Origin: Bacilli bacterium
GTDB taxonomy: Bacteria; Bacillota_I; Bacilli_A; RFN20; CAG-826
Direction: 5' to 3'
DNA length: 64,000 nucleotides
Assembly (NCBI GenBank): GCA_045631885.1
Contig: JAZQVN010000035.1
Span: forward strand, 67,726 to 131,725
Part shown: positions 7,753 to 49,592 of the stretch, piece by piece
Position numbering within the stretch: position 1 is the first letter of the stretch
How the letters are laid out: each line of letters opens with the position of its first letter
Notes under the pieces: model-generated
What the model was told of the DNA's origin: nothing
Databases searched by the model: none
Seen by the model: only the letters and a program-made list of their open reading frames with translations
Made by a program: the position numbers and the translations under genes

Positions 7753-8146
7753 TGGTGGAGCCGAGGAGAGTTGAACTCCTGTCCAGAGAAGGCTCTTCAA
7801 TAACGTCTACAGCTTAGACGGTATGAACTTTAACGTGTTTTGCATATCGACGGACTCTACACGCGAGACAAATTGTAACTTCATTAACGCCGTGTTAGTC
7901 TTCAAGCGTTAACTATCCTTTTGGTATGACACCACTACCAGGCGTGAAAGGCTAAAACCCTGGGTGATGCTGTGCCCGGCGCCTTGCGTCGGTCCCTAAC
8001 GTCGGGTGCTAATTAAGCAGCGCAGAGAACTTGAGCTCTAGGAGCTCTCATATAACTGTTGTCAGTTATTTTTGTTTTGGTTATCACGGTGACCAACCGG
8101 CTGCAGTTAGAGCCTAGCACATCCCTGTCGAAACCAGTACGACCCC
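7753..8146 (-). ncRNA. ssrA: tmRNA (transfer-messenger RNA)
   Basis: Minus-strand 5' end GGGGTCGTACTGGTTTCGACAGGG and 3' end GGACAGGAGTTCAACTCTCCTCGGCTCCACCA (T-arm plus acceptor plus CCA). An internal tag ORF ends ...GCT GCT TAA, with the stop in the loop of a TGCT/AGCA helix. Confidence 0.92.
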
Positions 8147-8280
8147 AATTGTGCTATCGAGCGAGTTATATTCTTACAAAAACAACGGGAAAAAGCAACA
8201 AATATTGCTCCCTTATAATATTTCATTTGTAAAATGATTCGTTATACCATACAATATACGGGCAAAGTGAGGTATCGCAA

Positions 8281-9327
8281 ATGAACCCAAAGGCTAAAAA
8301 ATTCTTATCAAATTTCTTCTTCGGACTATTCTCAAACGAACACGCGATTGAAGGTTCTAAATCCAATCCATGGTGGGTCGCCGCTATTATTGGTGTTTTA
8401 GGTTGTTTTATTCCAGTTATTCCATTAACTGTTAATACCGCTAATGCATATGGCAGTTCTTTCTTATCAAGCTATACATATCGTTATGATCAAAACATCT
8501 CTGATGTGACAACCAAAATGTTATTAGACAACAAGGAATTTAAAGTGAGTGATGAACACTTACTTCAATACTTTGACAATGGTGAAGTCGTTCACCCATC
8601 TGTCACTGAAGATGTCTATCCTGTTGCCTCTCATATTAATGCCTCTACAGGTCAATATGAATTAATGATTTATTTCACCGAAAGAGAAGGCGTTGATTTA
8701 GATGCTTTAAAAACATCCATCAATGACGCTCAATATAAGACTGGCACAACCGAAACCGCTGGTCCAAATGATGGTGCTTATGCTCCTTCATATGTTTTAC
8801 TCTTTAAAAACGGCATTTACACAAAATTGATGAAAGAGAATTCCGTTGAACAAGGTAATGGCACCGCGACAAACTACACAACCGACTGGAAACACTTTGA
8901 AGTCGGTCATGAATTATTAAAGAGCACATTACCAGAAGGCAAAGTCGCTTCTGATATCGACTTAAATAATTCTAACGATGTCAAAAAGATTTTTGAAAAC
9001 TGGAAAGAAGTCTATAACAAAGCTTATATCAGCCAAAAGACTTATAACATCTGGATGACAACATTACTCTTCTATGGAATCTACTTCGGTTTAACAATTC
9101 TCATGGGTTTATTAGTCTTCTTATTAACTCGTGGAAAGAACAATATGTTCAACTACTTGAAGTTCATCGATTGTCTCAAGATTGTCTGGTGGGCATGTTT
9201 ATCCCCAGCTATCCTTGGTATGATCTTCGGATTCATCTTTGCAAACTTCGCTCAAATGATGTTCATTATCTTAATTGGTTTAAGAGTCATGTGGATATCA
9301 ATGAAGCAATTAAGACCTCAATATTAA
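8281..9327 (+). CDS. Membrane protein, unknown function
   Basis: 348-aa ORF with an N-terminal TM segment, a large extracytoplasmic segment, and a C-terminal cluster of TM helices. Confidence 0.55.
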   Translation: MNPKAKKFLSNFFFGLFSNEHAIEGSKSNPWWVAAIIGVLGCFIPVIPLTVNTANAYGSSFLSSYTYRYDQNISDVTTKMLLDNKEFKVSDEHLLQYFDNGEVVHPSVTEDVYPVASHINASTGQYELMIYFTEREGVDLDALKTSINDAQYKTGTTETAGPNDGAYAPSYVLLFKNGIYTKLMKENSVEQGNGTATNYTTDWKHFEVGHELLKSTLPEGKVASDIDLNNSNDVKKIFENWKEVYNKAYISQKTYNIWMTTLLFYGIYFGLTILMGLLVFLLTRGKNNMFNYLKFIDCLKIVWWACLSPAILGMIFGFIFANFAQMMFIILIGLRVMWISMKQLRPQY

Positions 9328-9331
9328 CAAT

Positions 9332-9358
9332 AAAACGCTCGGTTAATTCGAGCGTTTT
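9332..9358. terminator. Bidirectional terminator between convergent genes
   Basis: ACGCTCG-gttaatt-CGAGCGT hairpin with an A-run before and a T-run after. Confidence 0.6.
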
Positions 9359-9359
9359 A

Positions 9360-9698
9360 TTAATCTCCGTAATCTGAACCACGACTCTTATCCTCAACGA
9401 ATATTTTTAGTGGGTCAGTGATGTCAGTTATCTCTAAGAATATATAATCTTCAACATTTGTTAATGGGCAATCATAGTTACCAGTGTAGACCACTCTTTT
9501 TTCTTTTCTCGCACGATTAATAATTTCATCGACGATTGATTGATATAACTCTGGATGATGATCTTTAAACCCTTTTAACATCGTGTAGAAAACTGGTTCA
9601 ATATAAAACCTTGATCCATCATCTAACTCATATAAAGAACAGAATGGATTATCTTTATCTTCAATTAATTTTAAGTCTTTAAATTCTTCGTGTTTCAT
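9360..9698 (-). CDS. Hypothetical cytoplasmic protein
   Basis: 112-aa ORF whose start overlaps the rlmH stop (4-nt overlap), so it is probably co-transcribed. Confidence 0.5.
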   Translation of the reverse strand: MKHEEFKDLKLIEDKDNPFCSLYELDDGSRFYIEPVFYTMLKGFKDHHPELYQSIVDEIINRARKEKRVVYTGNYDCPLTNVEDYIFLEITDITDPLKIFVEDKSRGSDYGD

Positions 9699-10174
9699 TT
9701 GTGGTAAGTCTCGTTTCTTAATATCTTAAATGCGCGGTAAATTTGCTCTAATAATATCAATCTAGTCATCTGATGTAAGAAGGTCATTTTGGATAAAGAG
9801 ATGGAGTCATTGCATCTTCTTTTTAACTCATCACTTAATCCATAAGAACCCCCGATAACGAAGGAGATTAATGAACCCCCTAAAACGAGTTTTTCATTCA
9901 AAAACTCCGCAAATTGGGGACTTTCTAACTCTTTTTTGTTTAAATCTAGTCCAATTAGGTACTCGTTATTTTTGAGTTGTTGAAGGACTTTTTCCCCTTC
10001 TTTATTCTTCGCGATTTCTATCTCTGAATGGTTGGGGTTATTTGGTATTGGTTCATCATTTAATTCCACGATTTCGATTTGGCAATATGGTCTAATTTTC
10101 TTTAAATAATCATCGACACCAATCTTCAAATAGTTCTCTTTAATTTTACCAATCGCATAGATTCTAATTTTCAT
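9695..10174 (-). CDS. rlmH: 23S rRNA (pseudouridine1915-N3)-methyltransferase RlmH
   Basis: 159 aa with SPOUT pattern: MKIRIYAIGKIKE...IGGSYGLSDE...LSKMTFLHQMTRLILLEQIYRAF. Confidence 0.88.
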   Translation of the reverse strand: MKIRIYAIGKIKENYLKIGVDDYLKKIRPYCQIEIVELNDEPIPNNPNHSEIEIAKNKEGEKVLQQLKNNEYLIGLDLNKKELESPQFAEFLNEKLVLGGSLISFVIGGSYGLSDELKRRCNDSISLSKMTFLHQMTRLILLEQIYRAFKILRNETYHK

Positions 10175-33767: not shown

Positions 33768-36335
33768 CTAGAAAATTTCTTTTCGTACAATAGTTTGATT
33801 TTTATCTGGGCCAACTGAAACCATAACTACAGGTACACCCACTTCTTTTTCGATGAATTCGACAAATTTTTTCACATTAACTGGAAGTTCATCATATGTT
33901 TTAACATTACTAATATCTTCACTCCATCCATTTAACTCAGAATAAATTGGTTTACATTCTCTTAACACTGCGTCAGAAGCAGGCAAAGTATTAATTAAGT
34001 GGCCTTTATAATTATAATGAGTACAAACCGCCACTTTTTTAAAACCGGTTAAAACATCCATAAGTGTTAAACAAATATAAGAAATGGAATTAATCTGAAC
34101 TGAATATTTCAAAGCGGGTAAATCCAAAAAGCCAATTCTTCTTGGACGGTGAGTAACTGTACCATATTCATGGCCCTTTTCCCTAATTAAATCACCAATA
34201 TCATTAATTTGTTCGGTTGGGAAAGCCCCTTCCCCCACTCTTGTTTCATAAACTTTAACAACACCCAATATGTCATCAACACCATGACAGCCAATACCGG
34301 TTCCATCAACTGTACCTCCAGAAGTAACGTTTGAAGAAGTAACATATGGATAACTACCAAAATCGACATCCAACAAAGCCCCTTGAGCCCCTTCAAATAA
34401 GATGTTCTTTTTGGCCTTTCTCGCTTCGCCTATCATATAAACGGTATCCGCTACCATCGGGCGAATATAATTAGCGAGTTCAATATATTCTTTAACAGTT
34501 TTATCATAGTCAATTGGATTACCACCCATATCGACGATTTGTTTATTTTTTATCATTAACAAATTTTTATAAAGAGCCGGGAAATCTTCGCTAACAAAAT
34601 CTACCATCCTCATACCAACGCGGCTTATTTTATCTGCATAAGCAGGGCCAATTCCACGTTTAGTAGTGCCGATTCTCTTATCTCCAAGAGCGGCTTCGTT
34701 TAGACGATCTAATTCAATATGGTGGTCGAATAAAACATGCGCTCTATCTGAGACATATATGTTTTTCGCGGAAAATCCCATAGATTTGATTTCTTCCACC
34801 TCTTCTTTAAATGCTCTTGGGTTGATAACCATCCCATTAGCGAGTATGCATTTCACATTTTCATTAAATACACCTGAAGGAATTAATCTTAATGCGTATT
34901 TACGGCCACCAAAAACAATCGTGTGACCGGCATTATTACCACCTTGATATCTAATTACAACATCGGCTTTTTCAGAAAGGAAGTTAGTGATTTTGCCCTT
35001 ACCTTCATCACCCCATTGGGAACCTAAAACAAGTAATGATTTTCCAGGTTTCAATCTCTTATAGATATTATCTATATTCTTAAGATAATAATCTTCATCA
35101 AAACATTCAATAATCTCTTCTTTGTTCAACACCTTGTTAATATGTTCATCTTCAAGTAATAAGTTTTTAAACGGTTGTTTTTCATTTAATGTTTTAAAGG
35201 CAATTGATTGAACTAAATCATAAGCTTCTTCTCTAGACATCCCTTTGTTAATGAGTTTATTTAAAACACCACCAGAATAAGTGATTCCATAATTTAGAAG
35301 AATGTTTTCATTCATTTTTTCAGTATTAACCACTAGGTCTTTACAAATTTGTGTAAATCTTTTAAGCATGTAGTCTAGAAGAGTGCAAGCATCAGGGATA
35401 ATAATACGTTCAGCAGAACTATGAGAAATATCTCTTTCATGCCACAAATTGTTATCTTCTAAAGCCACATCGACATAACTTCTCATAATGCGAGCGCAAC
35501 CACAAATATTTTCAGAACCAATAGGATTCTTTTTGTGTGGCATTGCGCTACTACCTTTTTGTCCTTTTAAAAATAGTTCTTGGACTTCACTAATTTCACT
35601 ACGAGATAGGTGCCTAATTTCAGTTGCCATCTTTTCTAAACAAGAAGCGATTTGTGCTAAGGAAAAAATATAGCCAGCATGTCTATCTCGAGAAAGAACT
35701 TGTGTTGATATTCTCGCAAAATTCATACCTAATTTGTTAGCGACATATTCTTCCACTTCCATCGGAATGTTTGCGTAGTTACCAACAGCGCCAGAAAGTT
35801 TAATTACTTCAACGTTATTTCTTTCATTTAAAAATCTTTCTCGACATCTATTTAATTCATCAAACCAAAGAGCCCATTTAAGACCAAATGAGGTGATTTC
35901 TGCATGCATTCCATGGGTTCTCCCTATGATTGGTTGGTGTTTATACTTTTCCGCCATTACTTTGGTGACAGAAATTAAATTATCCAAATCGTCTAAAAGA
36001 AGATTGTTAGCGTATTTCAAAGTTAAAGACTGGGCACTGTCAACAACATCAGTAGATGTAAGTGAATAATGAAACCATTTTTTCTCTTCGCCTAATTGAT
36101 GCGAAATAGAACGAGTAAAAGCAATAACGTCGTGTTTAGTAACCGCTTCTATTTCTTCAATGCTTTTTAAATCAACATGTGCTTTTTTAACGATAGCTTT
36201 GTAATCTTGTTCGGGCACAATGCCTAATTTAAAATACGCTTCAATAACTGTTTCTTCAATTATGAGGTAGTTATTAAATCTATTTTTATCAGAAAAAATC
36301 TCTTCAAATTCTTTATGGGAATACCTTTTAATCAT
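33768..36335 (-). CDS. purB/purA: Fused adenylosuccinate lyase (N-terminal) / adenylosuccinate synthetase (C-terminal)
   Basis: A single 855-aa frame. Residues 1 to about 428 carry PurB features (SLTSTD, GSSAMPHKKNP). From about residue 433, SLLVLGSQWGDEGKGKITNFL, GGNNAGHT and GTTKRGIGP mark PurA. The junction ...IYKRL-KPGK-SLLVLG has no stop and no ATG. Confidence 0.85.
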   Translation of the reverse strand: MIKRYSHKEFEEIFSDKNRFNNYLIIEETVIEAYFKLGIVPEQDYKAIVKKAHVDLKSIEEIEAVTKHDVIAFTRSISHQLGEEKKWFHYSLTSTDVVDSAQSLTLKYANNLLLDDLDNLISVTKVMAEKYKHQPIIGRTHGMHAEITSFGLKWALWFDELNRCRERFLNERNNVEVIKLSGAVGNYANIPMEVEEYVANKLGMNFARISTQVLSRDRHAGYIFSLAQIASCLEKMATEIRHLSRSEISEVQELFLKGQKGSSAMPHKKNPIGSENICGCARIMRSYVDVALEDNNLWHERDISHSSAERIIIPDACTLLDYMLKRFTQICKDLVVNTEKMNENILLNYGITYSGGVLNKLINKGMSREEAYDLVQSIAFKTLNEKQPFKNLLLEDEHINKVLNKEEIIECFDEDYYLKNIDNIYKRLKPGKSLLVLGSQWGDEGKGKITNFLSEKADVVIRYQGGNNAGHTIVFGGRKYALRLIPSGVFNENVKCILANGMVINPRAFKEEVEEIKSMGFSAKNIYVSDRAHVLFDHHIELDRLNEAALGDKRIGTTKRGIGPAYADKISRVGMRMVDFVSEDFPALYKNLLMIKNKQIVDMGGNPIDYDKTVKEYIELANYIRPMVADTVYMIGEARKAKKNILFEGAQGALLDVDFGSYPYVTSSNVTSGGTVDGTGIGCHGVDDILGVVKVYETRVGEGAFPTEQINDIGDLIREKGHEYGTVTHRPRRIGFLDLPALKYSVQINSISYICLTLMDVLTGFKKVAVCTHYNYKGHLINTLPASDAVLRECKPIYSELNGWSEDISNVKTYDELPVNVKKFVEFIEKEVGVPVVMVSVGPDKNQTIVRKEIF

Positions 36336-42726: not shown

Positions 42727-45459
42727 TTATTTAACAATAGTAGGATTTACTAAGGTAATAATTCCATCTTTAAATTGAATTGTCGCGGTGAAATTAACAA
42801 TTGGAACAATACCATCAGTTTCTCCTTCCATAACATAAGAAGAATAATCCTCTGCTAAATGGCTAAAGCCATAATATGTAGGTTCCCAGTTATGATCCAT
42901 AATGATGACGAAACCTTTACCATTGGTGAATAAAACTGTTTTATAAGAATAGATGCCTGTTTGTGAATCGAATGTCAAATCATTTCCGGTTGAAGCATCC
43001 CAACCATTAAATTCACCAACTAGAGAATAGGTGTGATCTTGAACGTAGCCACCTTCTCCAGAGTCACCACCTCCATGAATAGTAAAATGGAGCATATTTA
43101 CGCCGTTATTATTGATGATGGTAATTCTGAAATCGACATCCTTAACCACTCTAATATTATTGTCGCTAGCTTGAACTAAATATTCGCCACAAACATCTTC
43201 AGGGTTCAATATATCGCTATAGCCAAGTTTGCCAGCTTGTTCTCCGCGATTATATCCAATTACATAGAATAAATCGTTTGCGAATAATCCGTGGTCGATA
43301 TATAAACGACCCTCAGTGTCTGTACCAAATGGGAATTCAGGATTACCCTTGATAAATAGTTCAGCCCCGTCAAAACCTTGAACAGGAATATCCGATGTGA
43401 AATAAACTATTCTTATTGAATACTCTCCAATATTCTCATAATTAATACAGTATCTAACATCTTCTTGATCAAAATAATATTTATATTGATTATCTATGTC
43501 TTCATTTTCTTTCCAACCATTACTCTCTAACTTGGCTTTGAAAGCATCAAAAACTTGACTGCTTACTCCGAAATAATCAAAGAAGTCTGATTGTTCACCT
43601 GGATGATTAAACACCAAGCCTTCTGGAAGCAATATATCTTGATTAAGTACAGAGAATATCGCTTTATCAGCGTTTGAATATGAGCAATAGAAATCTTTAG
43701 TTTCTTGAATCTTTAAATAGCTTCCATCAAAACCGATTTTAAACACCTTATTTCTTGCTGTATCAGTGATCGCATAAGTTGGGTTTTTCTCAATTACTGG
43801 GTAGTCCATTTTTAAAAGTTTTTGTATATAGCTTTGTCTATCTTGTTCTTCAATACCGTTTAAATAGATAGAACAGCTAAGCGGATCAGCACTTTGAGAA
43901 GTTACTTCAACACTAGCGACGAATAGTTTAGAAGAGATAGATGGTACTAATCTTTCTAATCCCATTTCTTTCAAAGTTTCAAATGGCCAACCGATGACTG
44001 AATCGCTATATGGATTACAATTAATTCTTAAAATCTTATAATCTAAGATTTCTCCATCGGCCACCAAATTAACCTGAATTAGTAAAAGTGGTTGATGATA
44101 TGTATTAACGATTTCAACAACTGAATCGGTTGTTTTCACCAATATTGAGGTTCCAGAATCTAATAAAACATTAAGTTGTAAGTCTTCTATAGAAGCTTCT
44201 CCAATTAATTCTTGTTTATTATCTAAAGCAAGAATTTTTGGAATAAATGGGGATTCGTAGTGATATGAATCTTGATTATTAATCAAATTGGAGAAACTAA
44301 CTTTATCTGTTCCTAAATAGCATTCGTCACCTTCAGTCATTTCTCTTTCTCCACGATAATCCACGACTTTTAAGGACGCCGGTTTTCTTTCGTGTCCCCC
44401 TTCATCTTCGTCGCGAGTGACTAAAGAATAAATAACGTCTTTACCAAATATATTCGAGAACTCAGAGTACATTGTTTGGATAACATTGTTTTTGTTTCCT
44501 TGTTTATTAAAGAAAGGAGCCTTATCTATATCGGTAGCGTTAAGACCTAATTCATAAAATAAATGAGCGACTCTTTCTCTTCTATCAGTGTTTCTATTTA
44601 AATCTTTAGCTTTATAAAGTGCACTATTCTTATACCAAGAAAAAGATCCGACTTCATAAGAAACGCCATCATTAATGTAACTAGCAAATGTTTGATGTTC
44701 ATTATCTTTCACCAATGGAATATGAGCTTCTAAATCAAATTTTCTCCATTCCTTAATTTGGTTCTCTTGAACATCTACATAGTCATATTCATAGACGCAA
44801 CGATCATAATAAGGAATACCTGTTTCGTCGTTGTTAGTTAACATAGTTAAAATGTATGTTGGGTTTTCCTTATCCATGTTATAGTCAAGTTCCATAAACA
44901 CATACCAATCCGTTTGATAAGTATCAGTATCTTTACTTAAAGAAATTGAGAAAGAAACATCTGCGGTAATTAAATCGTTTGCGTCAATATTAATCGCTAA
45001 ACCTAAAGTGAAGGAATAGTCATATTCAAATTGAGATTTATGTTCACCTTCAAAACCAGTTTCAGAGTCAATATAAACTTTGCCAGTAACTGTATCGTAA
45101 TATTTAGTATCAAAAGAGTAATTACTACCGATTTTATCGAATGCATATTTGAGACATTGGAATTGAATCATTGGTGGTTGAGTATAACTCAAATCATCAA
45201 TCACATCACCTTGATTATCTTCTGATGAAAAAATAGAAAACAGGGAATCAAGTGTCGAACTAGCCGCTGCGCGAGAGAGTTTCTTATTTAATTGTTTGGC
45301 ATTATTACTTGAAACATTTCTAAAGCTGCTTTCCACTCCAGAAAAAGCGGTTTTGACCTTTTCATATGGCGTTGTAGGCGGTACGTATTTGTTATGTGTT
45401 CCGCACCCTGTTAATAACGATATGGCTAAAAAAGTACCGAATAATCCTAGCTTTTTCAT
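42727..45459 (-). CDS. Large surface lipoprotein with a C-terminal CBM48/E-set-like module
   Basis: MKKLGLFGTFLAISLLTGC lipobox (start at Met9 of the listed ORF). The last ~100 aa contain YSLVGEFNGWD...MDHNW, reminiscent of glycogen/starch-binding E-set domains. Confidence 0.6.
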   Translation of the reverse strand: MKKLGLFGTFLAISLLTGCGTHNKYVPPTTPYEKVKTAFSGVESSFRNVSSNNAKQLNKKLSRAAASSTLDSLFSIFSSEDNQGDVIDDLSYTQPPMIQFQCLKYAFDKIGSNYSFDTKYYDTVTGKVYIDSETGFEGEHKSQFEYDYSFTLGLAINIDANDLITADVSFSISLSKDTDTYQTDWYVFMELDYNMDKENPTYILTMLTNNDETGIPYYDRCVYEYDYVDVQENQIKEWRKFDLEAHIPLVKDNEHQTFASYINDGVSYEVGSFSWYKNSALYKAKDLNRNTDRRERVAHLFYELGLNATDIDKAPFFNKQGNKNNVIQTMYSEFSNIFGKDVIYSLVTRDEDEGGHERKPASLKVVDYRGEREMTEGDECYLGTDKVSFSNLINNQDSYHYESPFIPKILALDNKQELIGEASIEDLQLNVLLDSGTSILVKTTDSVVEIVNTYHQPLLLIQVNLVADGEILDYKILRINCNPYSDSVIGWPFETLKEMGLERLVPSISSKLFVASVEVTSQSADPLSCSIYLNGIEEQDRQSYIQKLLKMDYPVIEKNPTYAITDTARNKVFKIGFDGSYLKIQETKDFYCSYSNADKAIFSVLNQDILLPEGLVFNHPGEQSDFFDYFGVSSQVFDAFKAKLESNGWKENEDIDNQYKYYFDQEDVRYCINYENIGEYSIRIVYFTSDIPVQGFDGAELFIKGNPEFPFGTDTEGRLYIDHGLFANDLFYVIGYNRGEQAGKLGYSDILNPEDVCGEYLVQASDNNIRVVKDVDFRITIINNNGVNMLHFTIHGGGDSGEGGYVQDHTYSLVGEFNGWDASTGNDLTFDSQTGIYSYKTVLFTNGKGFVIIMDHNWEPTYYGFSHLAEDYSSYVMEGETDGIVPIVNFTATIQFKDGIITLVNPTIVK

Positions 45460-45531
45460 AAGTAAATCTCCTTGTATTATCACTATATACTAAAAAGGAT
45501 ATCAAAGCCAATTTATTGTATACTGAAATTA

Positions 45532-45623
45532 TTGTCCCAGGACGATGACTATTCTCAAAATTAGGACAGACCCGATTCTCCGATGACGGTCTCCATTTTT
45601 GAGCCACTCAACTTAGAATCGAC
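45532..45623 (+). repeat. ~92-nt islet repeat, copy 1
   Basis: TTGTCCCAGGACGATGAC...GATTCTCCGATGACGGTCTCCAT...AGAATCGAC. Identical to copy 2 at 75/92 positions by ungapped hand alignment. Confidence 0.8.
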
Positions 45624-45652: not shown

Positions 45653-45697
45653 AAAAAAGCCGCCCATAATGGACGACTTATTCTGCTTTTTGACGTT
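45653..45697 (-). terminator. Left copy of the duplicated rpsR-type terminator (45-bp direct repeat)
   Basis: AAAAAAGCCGCCCATAATGGACGACTTATTCTGCTTTTTGACGTT matches 49548..49592 at 43/45 positions. The hairpin pairs fully, with 2 G-U pairs, only on the minus strand. Confidence 0.75.
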
Positions 45698-45780: not shown

Positions 45781-46182
45781 TTATTTGCTTAACACTCTTG
45801 CTTGCATTTCATCACACCACTTATTCCATTTAATGTCATATTCTTCTTTTGACACTATTCTTTTTAGGAGGTCGGCAGGCGAGAGTATTCCTTGCTTTTT
45901 ACATTCTTTAACACATTCACGGTACATGTTCCAACTCAAATCATCTTCATCCCAAATTAAAGGCACAGATTCTATTCCTGATAATAATGCGACTACCAAT
46001 CGAGTGTGACCATCGGTGATAACGATTTCACCATCTAGCTGTTTAATTGGTATTGACTCAAAATTTGATAGGTCTTTTGGATCGAACCATTTCTTGACGT
46101 TTTCAATTTTTTCATCAGAAATATAAAATTGTGATGGTTGTAAATCTCTTATTGTAAGTGAATGAATATCTATATTTTTCAT
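45781..46182 (-). CDS. Small ParB/Srx-fold (ParB N-terminal-like) domain protein
   Basis: LQPSQFYISDEKIENVKKW...IVITDGHTRLVVAL resembles the ParB-like nuclease/NTPase core (DGHHR-type box). Start set at MKNIDI, since the longer listed ORF starts at a TTG. Lies 14 nt after the Fic stop. Confidence 0.5.
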   Translation of the reverse strand: MKNIDIHSLTIRDLQPSQFYISDEKIENVKKWFDPKDLSNFESIPIKQLDGEIVITDGHTRLVVALLSGIESVPLIWDEDDLSWNMYRECVKECKKQGILSPADLLKRIVSKEEYDIKWNKWCDEMQARVLSK

Positions 46183-46196
46183 GTAAAAACCAAAAA

Positions 46197-47168
46197 TTAT
46201 ATAATCTCCCAATACCCGAATCTTTTGCCGTTAATTCTTTTAATCTTGTTTTCTTTACTCAAAAGAGCTATGACGCTATCAATAGTTCGTGGCGAAACAC
46301 CAATTCTACTTGCCAATTCATCAATACTGATTCTCGGATTAGCTTTGATTAATTCTAAAACGCGTGTTTCCCTTGGGGTGGTTTCATTATCATTAGAGTC
46401 AATACTTATACGCAAGTCTCTATTTCTTAATATGTTATGTTCATTAAGAAGTAAATTTCTTAAAAACATAATAATGTATTTTTTATCATCATATATGCCT
46501 TTACGGATGAACTTGAAATTAGCCCTCACCAAGGCGTTTCTAAAAAACCAGGCATTTTTAGCAAAAACATCATTTGTTACATCATATCCTAGCGATCTTA
46601 GATATTTGATAAAAAATACCGCAGTGGTACGAGTATTTCCTTCCTGAAACGCGTGAATTTGCCAGAGATTAGAAACAAAAGTTGCTAAATGTTCAATGAC
46701 TTTATCCTCGGACAAATCAGCATATTTAAAATTTCTTTCAGTCTCAAAATCATACTCTAGAGTGTTCCTGAGTTCATGATAATCGCCATAAATGACAGAT
46801 CTACCATCAAGAACCCACTCTTTTTTTATGAAGTTATAATCTCTTAATTTTCCAGCATGGTTGAATACGCCTTCAAATAGTTGCTTATGAATGCTAACCA
46901 GTTGTCCAACTGTAAATGTAAAAGAATCGTCAGAAATAATTTGCGCAATCCTATTTGACACAATGTCTGCCTCTTCTGTTCTTGCATCTTCGTTAGGTTT
47001 ATTTTCATAATAAGAACTAATTATTTTATCTAGCTCATCTAAAGATATTTCTCCTTTGACATATCTATCAGCTTGCGATAAAAAATATGTCGAATTCTTA
47101 AGTCCGTCAACATCTTGAAGGCCAATTCCAGTTTCAATTAAATATTTGTTCGAATACTTATTTTCCAT
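46197..47168 (-). CDS. Fic/DOC family protein with a C-terminal winged-helix domain
   Basis: Fic motif variant HAFQEGNTRTTA (canonical HxFx[DE]GNGRxxR) at residues 172-183. The C-terminus TRVLELIKANPRISIDELASRIGVSPRTIDSVIALL looks like a wHTH. Confidence 0.8.
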   Translation of the reverse strand: MENKYSNKYLIETGIGLQDVDGLKNSTYFLSQADRYVKGEISLDELDKIISSYYENKPNEDARTEEADIVSNRIAQIISDDSFTFTVGQLVSIHKQLFEGVFNHAGKLRDYNFIKKEWVLDGRSVIYGDYHELRNTLEYDFETERNFKYADLSEDKVIEHLATFVSNLWQIHAFQEGNTRTTAVFFIKYLRSLGYDVTNDVFAKNAWFFRNALVRANFKFIRKGIYDDKKYIIMFLRNLLLNEHNILRNRDLRISIDSNDNETTPRETRVLELIKANPRISIDELASRIGVSPRTIDSVIALLSKENKIKRINGKRFGYWEII

Positions 47169-47404: not shown

Positions 47405-47496
47405 TTGTCCCAGGACGACGACCGTTCTCCGTTTTAAGACAGATCCGACTCTCCGACGACGGTCTCCATATTTGTTCCACACGACTCAGAATCGAC
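47405..47496 (+). repeat. ~92-nt islet repeat, copy 2
   Basis: TTGTCCCAGGACGACGAC...GACTCTCCGACGACGGTCTCCAT...AGAATCGAC. Confidence 0.8.
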
Positions 47497-47574: not shown

Positions 47575-47703
47575 CGATGGATTTATATTAATATAAATAG
47601 TTCAATAAAAGGCACATTATATTGTTTTTTTTATTCATAAAAATACAAAAACTTTTTCATTTGTGGCATGCTTCATAATAATATATAGGCAGGAGGAGCC
47701 AGT

Positions 47704-48426
47704 GTGACCACGATAAAAGAAATTAATGTTGGTAAAATTGATCCATCCATTAAAGGAGTCTTAGAGAAGTTAGTTACTATCAAAGGCTTAGACTTTTATG
47801 TGATTGGTGGTCTTCTATGTCAGTACTACTTAAAAGACCACGCTAGATATACAAAAGACGTTGATATCATTTTCAACGATGAACAAGAAGTCGTGGAAAG
47901 AGAATTAAAGAAAGCATTCGGCGATATTCATTTGTTCTATGCTGAAGATACAGAGAATTTCTATGGTGGCACTTTTACTTGCTTTACCAGAGTTAATGAG
48001 TTATTAGGGCAAATAGAAGGAAAGAAGATTAAATTCTTAAAAGATGTTAAGGGCAAACAATATTCTTATGAAGGCATTAACTTTAGAGGTGTTGATATTG
48101 AATATTGTATCGCTGAAAAGGTTGTCACTTTGTTAAATGAATTATGTAGACCATACAAACATTTAGTGGACCTCTATTCCTTTACTCAAATCGATCAATC
48201 ATTAATCGATAAGAAAGAAATAAAGAGATACATGCTACTAATAAACGCTCATGAGAATGTATATAGAAAAGCACATAATCTTAAGGAATATGAACTTCCT
48301 AAAGAAATTAAGGAAGATAAAGAGTTAAAACCACCAATAGTGGTCCCAACACTACAAAGTAAATATAACGTTTCTAGAGAAGTAATGAAATCTAGTGTGA
48401 ATGAGTGGTTGAAAACCATTATCTAA
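47704..48426 (+). CDS. AbiEii/AbiGii-like nucleotidyltransferase (DUF1814-type toxin family)
   Basis: GTG start with AGGAGG 7 nt upstream. NTase signature VIGGLLCQYYLKDHARYTKDVDIIF (GG-x15-DxD). The 240-aa size fits the family. Confidence 0.65.
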   Translation: MTTIKEINVGKIDPSIKGVLEKLVTIKGLDFYVIGGLLCQYYLKDHARYTKDVDIIFNDEQEVVERELKKAFGDIHLFYAEDTENFYGGTFTCFTRVNELLGQIEGKKIKFLKDVKGKQYSYEGINFRGVDIEYCIAEKVVTLLNELCRPYKHLVDLYSFTQIDQSLIDKKEIKRYMLLINAHENVYRKAHNLKEYELPKEIKEDKELKPPIVVPTLQSKYNVSREVMKSSVNEWLKTII

Positions 48427-48480
48427 AAGTATAATAAAAATATAAAAATCATAATTTAATAATGAAAGGTAGAACAAAGT

Positions 48481-48771
48481 ATGAGAGAAGAATTATTAAA
48501 AGGTTTAAGCAAACAACAACTTGAAAAAGCAAGCAAATGTAAAAACAAAAATGAATTACTTGCTCTTGCCAAAGAAGAAGGCGTGGAATTAACCAGCGAA
48601 CAACTCGAAGCTGTTTCCGGTGGTGCTTGTAGCCCTCATCAACAATTCCGCACAACAGCGTGCCCACAATGTGGTGAACAAATGCAAGGGGAATTCGTAG
48701 AAACCACCCCAGGTGATGGTAAATATCATTTCGTTTGTAAACATTGCGGTTTCGAATGGTTTGAAAAATAA
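48481..48771 (+). CDS. Nif11-like double-glycine leader fused to a zinc-ribbon-like Cys-rich core (96 aa)
   Basis: Leader: MREELLKGLSKQQLEKASKCKNKNELLALAKEEGVELTSEQLEAVSGG. Core: ACSPHQQFRTTACPQCGEQMQGEFVETTPGDGKYHFVCKHCGFEWFEK (CPQC...CKHC knuckles). Lies 54 nt after the NTase gene, and the two share one terminator. Confidence 0.65.
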   Translation: MREELLKGLSKQQLEKASKCKNKNELLALAKEEGVELTSEQLEAVSGGACSPHQQFRTTACPQCGEQMQGEFVETTPGDGKYHFVCKHCGFEWFEK

Positions 48772-48812
48772 TCATTAAAGACCACTAATATGAATATTAG
48801 AAGGGAATAGTT

Positions 48813-48839
48813 TTTGCTATTCCCTTTTTAACAAAATAT
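48813..48839 (+). terminator. Terminator of the NTase / leader-peptide operon
   Basis: GGGAATAG-tttttg-CTATTCCC hairpin followed by TTTTT. Confidence 0.75.
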
Positions 48840-48920: not shown

Positions 48921-49011
48921 TTGTCCAATTTTGCCACGACTACTTCGACGACGACCATTCTCCTGAAAAGCACGAAACCGACTCTCCGAAGCGGTACTGA
49001 CTTCAGTAATC
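48921..49011 (+). repeat. ~92-nt islet repeat, copy 3 (diverged, with indels)
   Basis: Shares TTGTCC, GACGACGACCATTCTCC, CCGACTCTCCGA (12/12 with copy 2) and GACTTCAGTAATC blocks. Its right end overlaps the last codons and stop of the 49003..49479 gene. Confidence 0.6.
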
Positions 49012-49479
49012 CGTTTTTTCCTTAACCACGATTCGGGATTCGTCAATGTAGCAATCGTCGCCATTCACGTAGCATTCCAAAACCATGTCGGGCTTAAGAA
49101 GCACAGCGTCTTTGTAACTAATATATAGCGAATGCATGAACTGGTTACCCGAATCCCCGCGAAAAGAAACGATAAGTTGGTATCCGTTTCTAACGCGCAA
49201 AACGTTATGCACTTTGCATTCCGTCTTTCTACCGATTTGCATGATTTTTCGACTTTGTCCGCCTTTAATAAGCATCAACAAACCAACTCCCACTAATAGC
49301 AAAGGGGCAAAACCGCCTGCGATTAAAGGAAACAAATAAAGTGGCATTATAAAGCTCTCCATACGGCTGGAAACATAAACCAGAACAACAGTAACGACTG
49401 CAGAAAACACGCCAGCAACCAAACCAAATATCAGTAATAATAGACCGCCTGTACGATTTCCTTGATTCTTCATTTTCAC
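49003..49479 (-). CDS. Membrane protein with a C-terminal soluble beta-rich domain; compositionally foreign
   Basis: 158-aa ORF with 2-3 N-terminal TM helices. Its codon usage is visibly richer in G/C than its neighbours, and it uses a TGA stop. Confidence 0.55.
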   Translation of the reverse strand: MKMKNQGNRTGGLLLLIFGLVAGVFSAVVTVVLVYVSSRMESFIMPLYLFPLIAGGFAPLLLVGVGLLMLIKGGQSRKIMQIGRKTECKVHNVLRVRNGYQLIVSFRGDSGNQFMHSLYISYKDAVLLKPDMVLECYVNGDDCYIDESRIVVKEKTDY

Positions 49480-49547: not shown

Positions 49548-49592
49548 AAAAAAGCCGCCCATAATGGACGACTTTTGCTGCTTTTTGACGTT
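49548..49592 (-). terminator. rpsR terminator; right copy of the 45-bp direct repeat
   Basis: Lies 5 nt after the rpsR stop. Minus strand GTCGTCCAT/ATGGGCGGC stem followed by TTTTTT. Confidence 0.8.

Follow-up and report, generated by a model that had tools for sequence, protein, structure and literature searches.

A short gene in a 64,000-nucleotide stretch of DNA from a Bacilli bacterium (GenBank assembly GCA_045631885.1, contig JAZQVN010000035.1, positions 67,726 to 131,725 of the forward strand; hereafter, the window) was analyzed together with its neighborhood and its relatives in other genomes. With a probability of roughly two in three, this gene is the orphan precursor gene of a ribosomally made, exported, and cysteine-rich peptide, which is matured in trans and has a dedicated nucleotidyltransferase as its partner. 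The product consists of a predicted leader, MREELLKGLSKQQLEKASKCKNKNELLALAKEEGVELTSEQLEAVSGG, followed by a predicted core, ACSPHQQFRTTACPQCGEQMQGEFVETTPGDGKYHFVCKHCGFEWFEK. The initial annotation of the gene, which was made from the letters of the window, had described a 48-residue leader ending in a double glycine (GG) and a 48-residue core with five cysteines, and this description was found to be exact. The cysteines after GG are C50, C61, C64, C86, and C89, and the last four form the pattern CPQC, 21 residues, CKHC. The coordinates of the gene, its parts, and its immediate surroundings are given in Table 1.

The precursor gene starts 54 nt 3' of the open reading frame (ORF) of a 240-residue nucleotidyltransferase of the AbiEii/DUF1814 type. 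On its other side lies an intrinsic terminator with a 13-bp stem and a folding energy of -18.6 kcal/mol (z-score, -4.5), and none of 200 shuffled sequences folded equally well. Because of the 54-nt gap and the strong terminator 3' of the precursor, the two genes were regarded as a two-gene unit. A weak promoter candidate was also located upstream of the unit, and such sites are no more common in this region than in shuffled sequence. The initial annotation had recorded neither the conserved upstream partner gene nor the terminator, nor a cysteine inside the leader (C20).

The precursor belongs to a large family. A word-indexed search returned 375 homologues, all of approximately 90–100 residues and aligned end to end, with E-values down to 1e-55. 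Moreover, an exhaustive profile search of 1.84 billion representatives, each standing for a 50%-identity cluster, returned 2,940 matches at E ≤ 1e-3 and 438 at E ≤ 1e-10. Since the homologues match over their full length and share a conserved pattern, the ORF did not arise by chance. The hosts are uncultured rumen and gut Bacilli, the metagenome-assembled genomes (MAGs) of which are labeled as Bacilli, Bacillales, Erysipelotrichaceae, and, in a few cases, Lachnospiraceae, and the family was found in 367 stretches among the species representatives of GTDB. No model in Pfam, NCBIfam, or PADLOC covers the precursor family, and it has no solved structure. Literature searches on Nif11 and zinc ribbons, AbiEii and ribosomally made peptides with post-translational modifications (RiPPs), radical S-adenosylmethionine (SAM)/SPASM enzymes with C39-peptidase ABC transporters (PCATs), and rumen RiPPs returned no description of the family from the library that was searched.

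Conservation was determined column by column for 225 unique intact members from loci fetched from related genomes, and knuckles and cysteines were counted in 229 cores. The leader is strongly conserved, with many columns above 95% identity; GG was kept in all 225 intact precursors, and the cysteine at position -29 (C20) in 223 of them. In the same alignment, C61, C64, C86, and C89 show virtually no variation, and 97% of the members have C50. Beyond GG, the core is hypervariable except for a cysteine near GG, the motifs C-P-x-C-G and [FY]-x-C-x-x-C-G, and a tryptophan. A cysteine lies 1–3 residues after GG in 221 of the 229 cores, both knuckles were present in 222 with a spacing of 13–30 residues, and the cores carry mostly five (130 members) or six (88 members) cysteines. 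The combination of a conserved leader with a hypervariable core is the hallmark of precursors of RiPPs and bacteriocins. In the clade of the window, represented by 15 species-level copies, the ratio of nonsynonymous to synonymous polymorphism (pN/pS) is 0.23–0.28 for the leader and the C-terminal half of the core (0.23 for the latter), with synonymous sites near saturation, and both regions are under purifying selection.

Frameshifted or truncated members of the family exist elsewhere. The "leader-only" matches were rejected as proof of other core classes because most of them look frameshifted or truncated, and one short acidic type, GGxC...HRKIxx, looks real. In the representative library, P0268, P0294, P0301, and P0261 carry the family leader and GGxC on short acidic cores without zinc knuckles, and several of these knuckle-less cores end in HRKIxx or ERKIDS. 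They may constitute another class of cores that uses the same machinery.

Residues 1–48 are best described as a short, divergent Nif11-type leader. This placement was based on family-level matches, a sequence motif, and a spacing pattern. When 117 aligned members were scanned one by one with profile hidden Markov models, the most common matches at E ≤ 1e-3 were TIGR03798 (45 of 117) and Nif11 PF07862 (35 of 117), with the best E-values at approximately 1e-5; the remaining matches were assorted zinc-ribbon models. The end of the leader, ELTSEQLEAVSGG, was compared with motif 2 of the N11P precursors, ELSDEELEAVAGG, which likewise ends in GG (Haft et al. 2010, PMC2887384), and 9 of 13 positions were identical, or 10 when a conservative S/T change was counted. 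Substrates of the C39 peptidase of a PCAT carry hydrophobic residues at -4, -7, and -12 relative to a GG (or GA/GS) site (PMC10885120), and the leader in the window fits this rule with V45, L42, and L37, respectively. In length, the leader departs from the Nif11 type, with 48 residues versus approximately 70. The Nif11 leader proposed in the initial annotation is therefore upheld by the family matches, the N11P motif, and the PCAT pattern, while the window protein taken by itself is borderline under the refuting condition set in the initial annotation and stays below the cut-offs of both models. A conserved cysteine in a Nif11-type leader, as found here at position 20, is unusual; it may pair with C50 or contact the maturase.

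The machinery for such a precursor was sought in the window. A Pfam scan of all window ORFs of at least 300 residues revealed only housekeeping genes (DnaB, GdpP, HtpG, GlmS, GS-III, CTP synthase, LysS, FtsH, TilS, Mfd, and others) and one ABC-F ATPase, with no PCAT, LanM/LanB, or radical-SAM gene. Similarly, a tblastn search of the window with the cluster proteins of the relatives detected only the AbiEii-like gene and a weak ABC match. Both searches agree with the initial annotation, which had noted the absence of these genes. A lanthipeptide reading was rejected, as LanM, LanB, or LanKC was found neither in the window nor in any cluster of a relative.

In related genomes, 94 loci (numbered from L001) carry 273 precursor-like ORFs, with up to 13 per locus; most of these loci are without maturation genes, and the precursors are spread over many loci per genome. 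A minority of loci share a gene set that comprises precursors, a HipA_C-like protein of 390 residues, a radical-SAM/SPASM enzyme of approximately 465 residues, a 129-residue membrane protein resembling the N-terminus of the HlyD of NHLP systems, a C39 PCAT, and a second ABC transporter, often together with STAS, SpoIIE-type PP2C, and HATPase_c_2 partner-switching genes. In L001, the AbiEii–precursor unit stands among eight paralogous precursors, with SpoIIE, the HipA_C-like protein, the radical-SAM/SPASM enzyme, the 129-residue HlyD-N-like protein, the PCAT, and the ABC transporter; its PCAT scored 834.6 bits against TIGR03796 (NHLM_micro_ABC1; cut-off, 853.3). The core gene set of L001 recurs in L010, L013–L016, L038, L056, L072, and L090. 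The radical-SAM/SPASM gene is present throughout the clusters, in many cases immediately next to precursor genes. Its product lies outside all curated maturase families (best matches ≤ 97 bits versus cut-offs of 340–725), and the solved relative closest to it is SkfB, a sactipeptide enzyme, with a weak match (E 1e-9). Searches of PDB sequences in which the two AbiEii-like proteins and the HipA_C-like protein served as queries returned no match.

The closest available genome, the goat-rumen MAG RGIG3485, carries a homologous two-gene unit (L017, with a precursor 82% identical to that of the window) and a full cluster (L056) on different contigs. The same separation of unit and cluster was observed in RUG14810 (L026 versus L038) and SRR11861928_bin.55 (L053 versus L090), and at least 13 species retain the orphan arrangement. 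Because the window is devoid of processing genes and the closest genome holds the unit and the cluster on different contigs, maturation in trans is the best reading. The initial annotation had offered an orphan precursor matured in trans as the first of its three options, and this option is now favored by the leader evidence and by the paralogues beside an NHLP-type C39 PCAT and a radical-SAM/SPASM gene in the relatives. Scattered precursors served by a single machinery are also the layout of the N11P/prochlorosin system (PMC2887384).

Two further features of these loci were recorded. A STAS protein, a membrane SpoIIE-type PP2C phosphatase, and a HATPase_c_2 anti-sigma-type kinase form a partner-switching module in L013–L016, L040, L056, and L094 (in L014, positions 134–427 and 8004–9949), and in L094 the STAS gene lies directly 3' of the AbiEii–precursor pair. 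The HipA_C-like protein of 390 residues adjoins the radical-SAM gene in the clusters of the relatives.

To our knowledge, the only role established for AbiEii/DUF1814 enzymes is that of toxins that modify tRNA, in abortive-infection and MenAT systems. The partner gene in the window exceeds the threshold of Pfam PF08843 (AbiEii), with 29.9 bits against a cut-off of 22.5, and its motifs GG...DxD and K/RPYKHLVD are invariant in 18 homologues. The AlphaFold2 model of the enzyme has a predicted local distance difference test (pLDDT) score of 89.8. Among the folds in PDB, it comes closest to JHP933, a DUF1814 protein (4o8s/4ok0); the next matches are CCA-adding enzymes, Pol X, and LnuA, which is a lincosamide nucleotidyltransferase. 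In the fetched loci, all 38 AbiEii-like genes have a precursor of the family at a distance of 0–122 bp on the same strand. The precursor is downstream of the nucleotidyltransferase type of 237–240 residues, down to 34% identity, and upstream of, or overlapping with, an AbiEii type of 298 residues, which occurs inside the radical-SAM/PCAT clusters L010 and L056 and at the edge of L072. Two look-ups were seeded by the nucleotidyltransferase and thus free of precursor bias, and both times a precursor of 95 residues was found 58 nt downstream in unrelated surroundings. Moreover, each nucleotidyltransferase clade has one conserved core type, for example, ...VETTPGDGKYHFVC... in the clade of the window and ...CSESTVAVTCPKCG...YRDSS.KNLG.FTC... 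in another clade.

The core most likely adopts a small zinc-ribbon fold, as judged from structural models. Its two CxxC knuckles, CPQCG and CKHCG, are of the kind that zinc ribbons carry on beta-hairpins. In an AlphaFold2 model built on 117 sequences, residues 55–96 form four strands with pLDDT scores of 76–83, and the leader forms three helices of low confidence. The best Foldseek matches of the model were the zinc ribbons of RPA12, ZPR1, Rpb9, and C11, with probabilities of 0.96–1.0 and E-values of at least 0.05. Similarly, a comparison of the family profile with PDB sequences gave weak matches (E 4e-4 to 0.05) to the ribbons of Rpc10, Rpb9, and TFIIS. The zinc-ribbon core suggested in the initial annotation is thus supported by a model of moderate confidence, as well as by weak similarity to the Rpb9, TFIIS, and C11 ribbons in fold and profile searches.

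These results are consistent with the following mechanism. By analogy with the clusters of the relatives, the leader would dock the precursor to a radical-SAM/SPASM maturase encoded elsewhere in the host genome, and cleavage after Gly48 and export of the 48-residue core would fall to an NHLP-type PCAT. As modeled, the core would fold as a Zn(Cys)4 ribbon in which the four knuckle cysteines hold the metal. The fifth, near-invariant cysteine (C50), two residues past the cut site, would be the likeliest donor for a radical-SAM crosslink; this is the weakest step of the proposal. The nucleotidyltransferase, which would be co-transcribed with the precursor, most likely either provides cognate immunity or tailors this core type specifically, and the immunity role is suggested by the example of pol-beta nucleotidyltransferases that inactivate antibiotics, such as LnuA.

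Several results weigh against an exported and modified peptide matured in trans. The window protein scored 18.9 bits against PF07862 (cut-off, 23.8) and 16.2 bits against TIGR03798 (cut-off, 32.3), and the 64-kb window itself provides none of the expected enzymes or transporters. The precursor model is only moderately confident, with a mean pLDDT of 63, and Foldseek returned no match for it at E ≤ 1e-3. In the literature, no paper was found that supports cleavage, export, zinc binding, or modification of the precursor. A CPxCG...CxxCG ribbon would also be an odd substrate for thioether-forming radical-SAM enzymes, as metal-bound cysteines would not act as crosslink donors, and vice versa. Furthermore, the AbiEii-linked clades have conserved cores and behave as stand-alone mobile two-gene units, which also fits a toxin–antitoxin pair. 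In such a pair, the nucleotidyltransferase would be a tRNA-modifying, growth-arresting toxin of the AbiEii/MenT type and the small protein an intracellular antitoxin or regulator, with a "leader" inherited from exported paralogues. This is quite unlikely in our view, and it was retained as a minority rival because of the conserved AbiEii-like partner gene. In favor of this rival, the two-gene unit stands alone, its context differs in each genome, and it undergoes recombination as one module; every nucleotidyltransferase clade comes with a conserved core type of its own; the catalytic motifs are intact on a DUF1814-like fold; a neighboring Fic gene belongs to a candidate defense family; and DUF1814 toxins are known to have antitoxins of diverse structure (PMC11375011). 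However, the leader, GG, and the -4/-7/-12 pattern are equally conserved in AbiEii-linked and cluster-linked copies; therefore, the AbiEii-linked copies are probably still processed by the same machinery, which argues against a purely intracellular role. Some AbiEii-like genes also stand with radical-SAM/PCAT genes, as in L010, L056, and L072. In addition, no ORF for a winged-helix AbiEi (COG5340) antitoxin was found in the 535 bp upstream, and no match to one was obtained with Pfam or PADLOC; the gene order, with the nucleotidyltransferase first, is opposite to that of AbiE and MenAT; the PADLOC AbiEii models matched weakly, with 22 bits over the N-terminal motif only; and no relatives were found on phage, plasmid, or viral contigs in IMG/VR, the GenBank phages, or PLSDB.

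The peptide may instead be exported without modification, as a zinc-binding mini-protein that serves as a class-II-bacteriocin-like toxin or a signal; the PCAT would then be used only for cleavage and export, and the radical-SAM enzyme would act on other substrates or at least not on the core type of the window. The knuckles with their beta-strand propensity are a classic structural zinc site, AbiEii-linked copies are usually distant from any radical-SAM gene, and the PCATs of many Bacillota export unmodified GG-leader peptides (PMC10885120). Nevertheless, this alternative was considered unlikely. The cysteine next to GG is kept even in short knuckle-less cores and therefore points to a conserved modification site, and the radical-SAM/SPASM gene is constant in the clusters. 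It is far less probable that the gene is decaying after the loss of its cluster and has no functional product. The missing maturation and export genes and the broken family members elsewhere would suit a relic, but the ORF is intact and has a Shine–Dalgarno sequence and a terminator, pN/pS is low despite near-saturated synonymous change, and the orphan arrangement has been maintained across species. Conversely, the favored orphan precursor matured in trans could be part of something broader, namely, a new class of exported, radical-SAM-tailored zinc-ribbon mini-proteins in which certain core types have their own AbiEii/DUF1814 enzyme. This enzyme would act on the peptide, not on tRNA, and would either nucleotidylylate the core, which would be a novel RiPP modification, or inactivate the re-imported peptide, which would be a novel form of bacteriocin immunity. 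We regard this extension as doubtful, though conceivable.

The unit in the window has a mosaic origin. From 47714 to 48552, a region covering the nucleotidyltransferase gene and the first 24 leader codons, the sequence is 88–100% identical to L001 (mostly 95–100%), versus 62–88% for L017. The segment from 48553 to 48793, with the last part of the leader, the core, and the 3' end, is 85–100% identical to L017, versus 63–80% for L001. The promoter-proximal segment, 47658–47717, is again L017-like, with 93% identity, and the flanks of the unit match neither locus. Because the identity switches from L001-like to L017-like inside the leader, the unit is a recombinant with a breakpoint within the leader-coding region. 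As this breakpoint falls within the conserved leader, conserved leaders evidently serve as recombination handles for exchanging cores.

Table 1. Features of the precursor gene and its two-gene unit (window positions; locus numbers refer to related genomes)
Feature	Position	Strand	Description
Precursor ORF	48481..48771	+	ATG start, Shine–Dalgarno sequence, 96 residues
Leader region	48481..48624	+	Residues 1–48, including Cys20 and GG47–48; predicted divergent short Nif11-type double-glycine leader
Cys20 codon in leader	48538–48540	+	Cys at -29 of leader
Approximate recombination breakpoint	48540..48560	+	Leader-coding region; identity switch from L001 to L017
GG codons	48619..48624	+	Residues 47–48; predicted C39 peptidase cleavage site
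Core region	48625..48771	+	Residues 49–96 plus stop codon; Cys50, two knuckles, Trp93
Knuckle 1, CPQCG	48661–48675	+	Core region
Knuckle 2, CKHCG	48736–48750	+	Core region
AbiEii/DUF1814-type nucleotidyltransferase gene	47704..48426	+	240 residues, GTG start behind AGGAGG; partner of precursor
Intrinsic terminator, hairpin plus U-run	48799..48829	+	Ends the AbiEii–precursor unit; folding versus shuffles
Weak sigma-70-like promoter candidate, TTTTCA-17-AATAAT	47654..47682	+	Upstream of the two-gene unit; consensus match

The surroundings of the unit were also characterized. Upstream lie a divergent Fic gene (46197–47168, minus strand) and the gene of a 143-residue protein (45781–46212, minus strand). 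The Fic-domain protein has a C-terminal winged-helix helix-turn-helix domain and matches the PADLOC candidate phage-defense family PDC-S72 (E 1.5e-122); Fic genes also occur near the AbiEii–precursor unit in L001 and L007. The 143-residue protein, a predicted membrane protein of 158 residues (49003–49479, minus strand), and a lipoprotein-like protein of 918 residues (42727–45483, minus strand) had no match in Pfam, NCBIfam, or PADLOC. An insertion site shared with L010/L011 was considered, as both lie beside rpsF-ssb-rpsR, and was rejected because the 158-residue membrane protein has no homologue in any fetched locus. Between the 918-residue lipoprotein gene and rpsR, gene modules are separated by GC-rich direct repeats (approximately 49% versus 33% GC; 45532–45623, 47405–47496, and 48947–48989) and by a 45-nt terminator-like repeat (45653–45697 and 49548–49592). 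The repeats were considered as structured RNA or mobile-element ends flanking the two-gene unit and were rejected as a part of it: they had no Rfam match, folded worse than shuffled sequence, and were missing from the copy of the module in L001. The GC-rich repeats may be decayed coding remnants. Elsewhere in the window, an ORF of 855 residues (33768–36335, minus strand) fuses adenylosuccinate lyase (Lyase_1 and ADSL_C, residues 10–427) to adenylosuccinate synthetase (residues 436–849) and is a PurB–PurA fusion covering two steps of AMP synthesis, and a transfer-messenger RNA gene was identified at 7753–8146 on the minus strand (Rfam RF00023, 119.9 bits).

In comparison with known systems, the closest resemblance is to the N11P precursors (TIGR03798/PF07862), which include prochlorosin ProcA (Haft et al. 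2010, PMC2887384). Both have a helical leader ending in EL(S/T)xE(E/Q)LEAV(A/S)GG, a conserved leader ahead of a hypervariable core, large families of paralogues with many copies distant from modification and export genes, and export by an NHLP-type PCAT and a second ABC system. Unlike N11P, the family described here has a leader of 48 rather than approximately 70 residues with an invariant cysteine, and the window protein falls below both curated cut-offs. Moreover, its hosts are rumen Bacilli and not cyanobacteria or nitrogen fixers, the maturase in the relatives is a radical-SAM/SPASM enzyme and not LanM or a cyclodehydratase, and the core resembles a zinc-ribbon mini-domain. Sactipeptides (the SkfB product, ruminococcin C) and ranthipeptides/SCIFF share cysteine-rich cores, radical-SAM/SPASM genes beside precursors (here, beside the paralogues in the relatives), and hosts among gut and rumen Firmicutes. 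However, the radical-SAM enzyme of the relatives matches no curated maturase and is missing from the window, the leader is of the Nif11 type, and a core of approximately 48 residues with CPxCG/CxxCG knuckle geometry is not seen in known sactipeptide or ranthipeptide cores.

With AbiE and MenAT (DUF1814), the system shares a partner gene that scores above the AbiEii cut-off of Pfam, the DxD and Lys motifs, and a DUF1814-like fold, whereas it has no AbiEi/COG5340 or MenA-type partner; instead, a GG-leader precursor lies downstream, and some copies occur in RiPP-type clusters. The CPxCG micro-proteins, such as HVO_2753 and HVO_0649 of Haloferax, and the C-terminal ribbons of Rpb9 and TFIIS show the same CPxCG...CxxCG pattern and a predicted ribbon of three to four strands. 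In contrast to the precursor, these proteins are intracellular and leaderless, and the likeness is a generic ribbon signature in which every match is below the curated cut-off. A GG-leader precursor of the Nif11/NHLP type with PCAT export and a radical-SAM maturase is already known; what is new is the zinc-ribbon-like core, the invariant leader cysteine, and the obligate AbiEii-type partner.

Taken alone, the window yields a modest result, that is, one intact orphan copy with its processing genes presumably outside the 64 kb. The precursor family is large and uncurated. Through it, the Nif11/NHLP logic of long leaders and scattered precursors reaches beyond cyanobacteria into uncultured rumen Bacilli and takes in a folded core that probably binds metal. 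Core swapping at conserved leaders is relevant to the diversification of bacteriocin repertoires in gut communities. If true, a peptide-directed role of AbiEii/DUF1814 enzymes would give this very widespread enzyme family a new kind of biology, outside toxin–antitoxin systems and phage defense.

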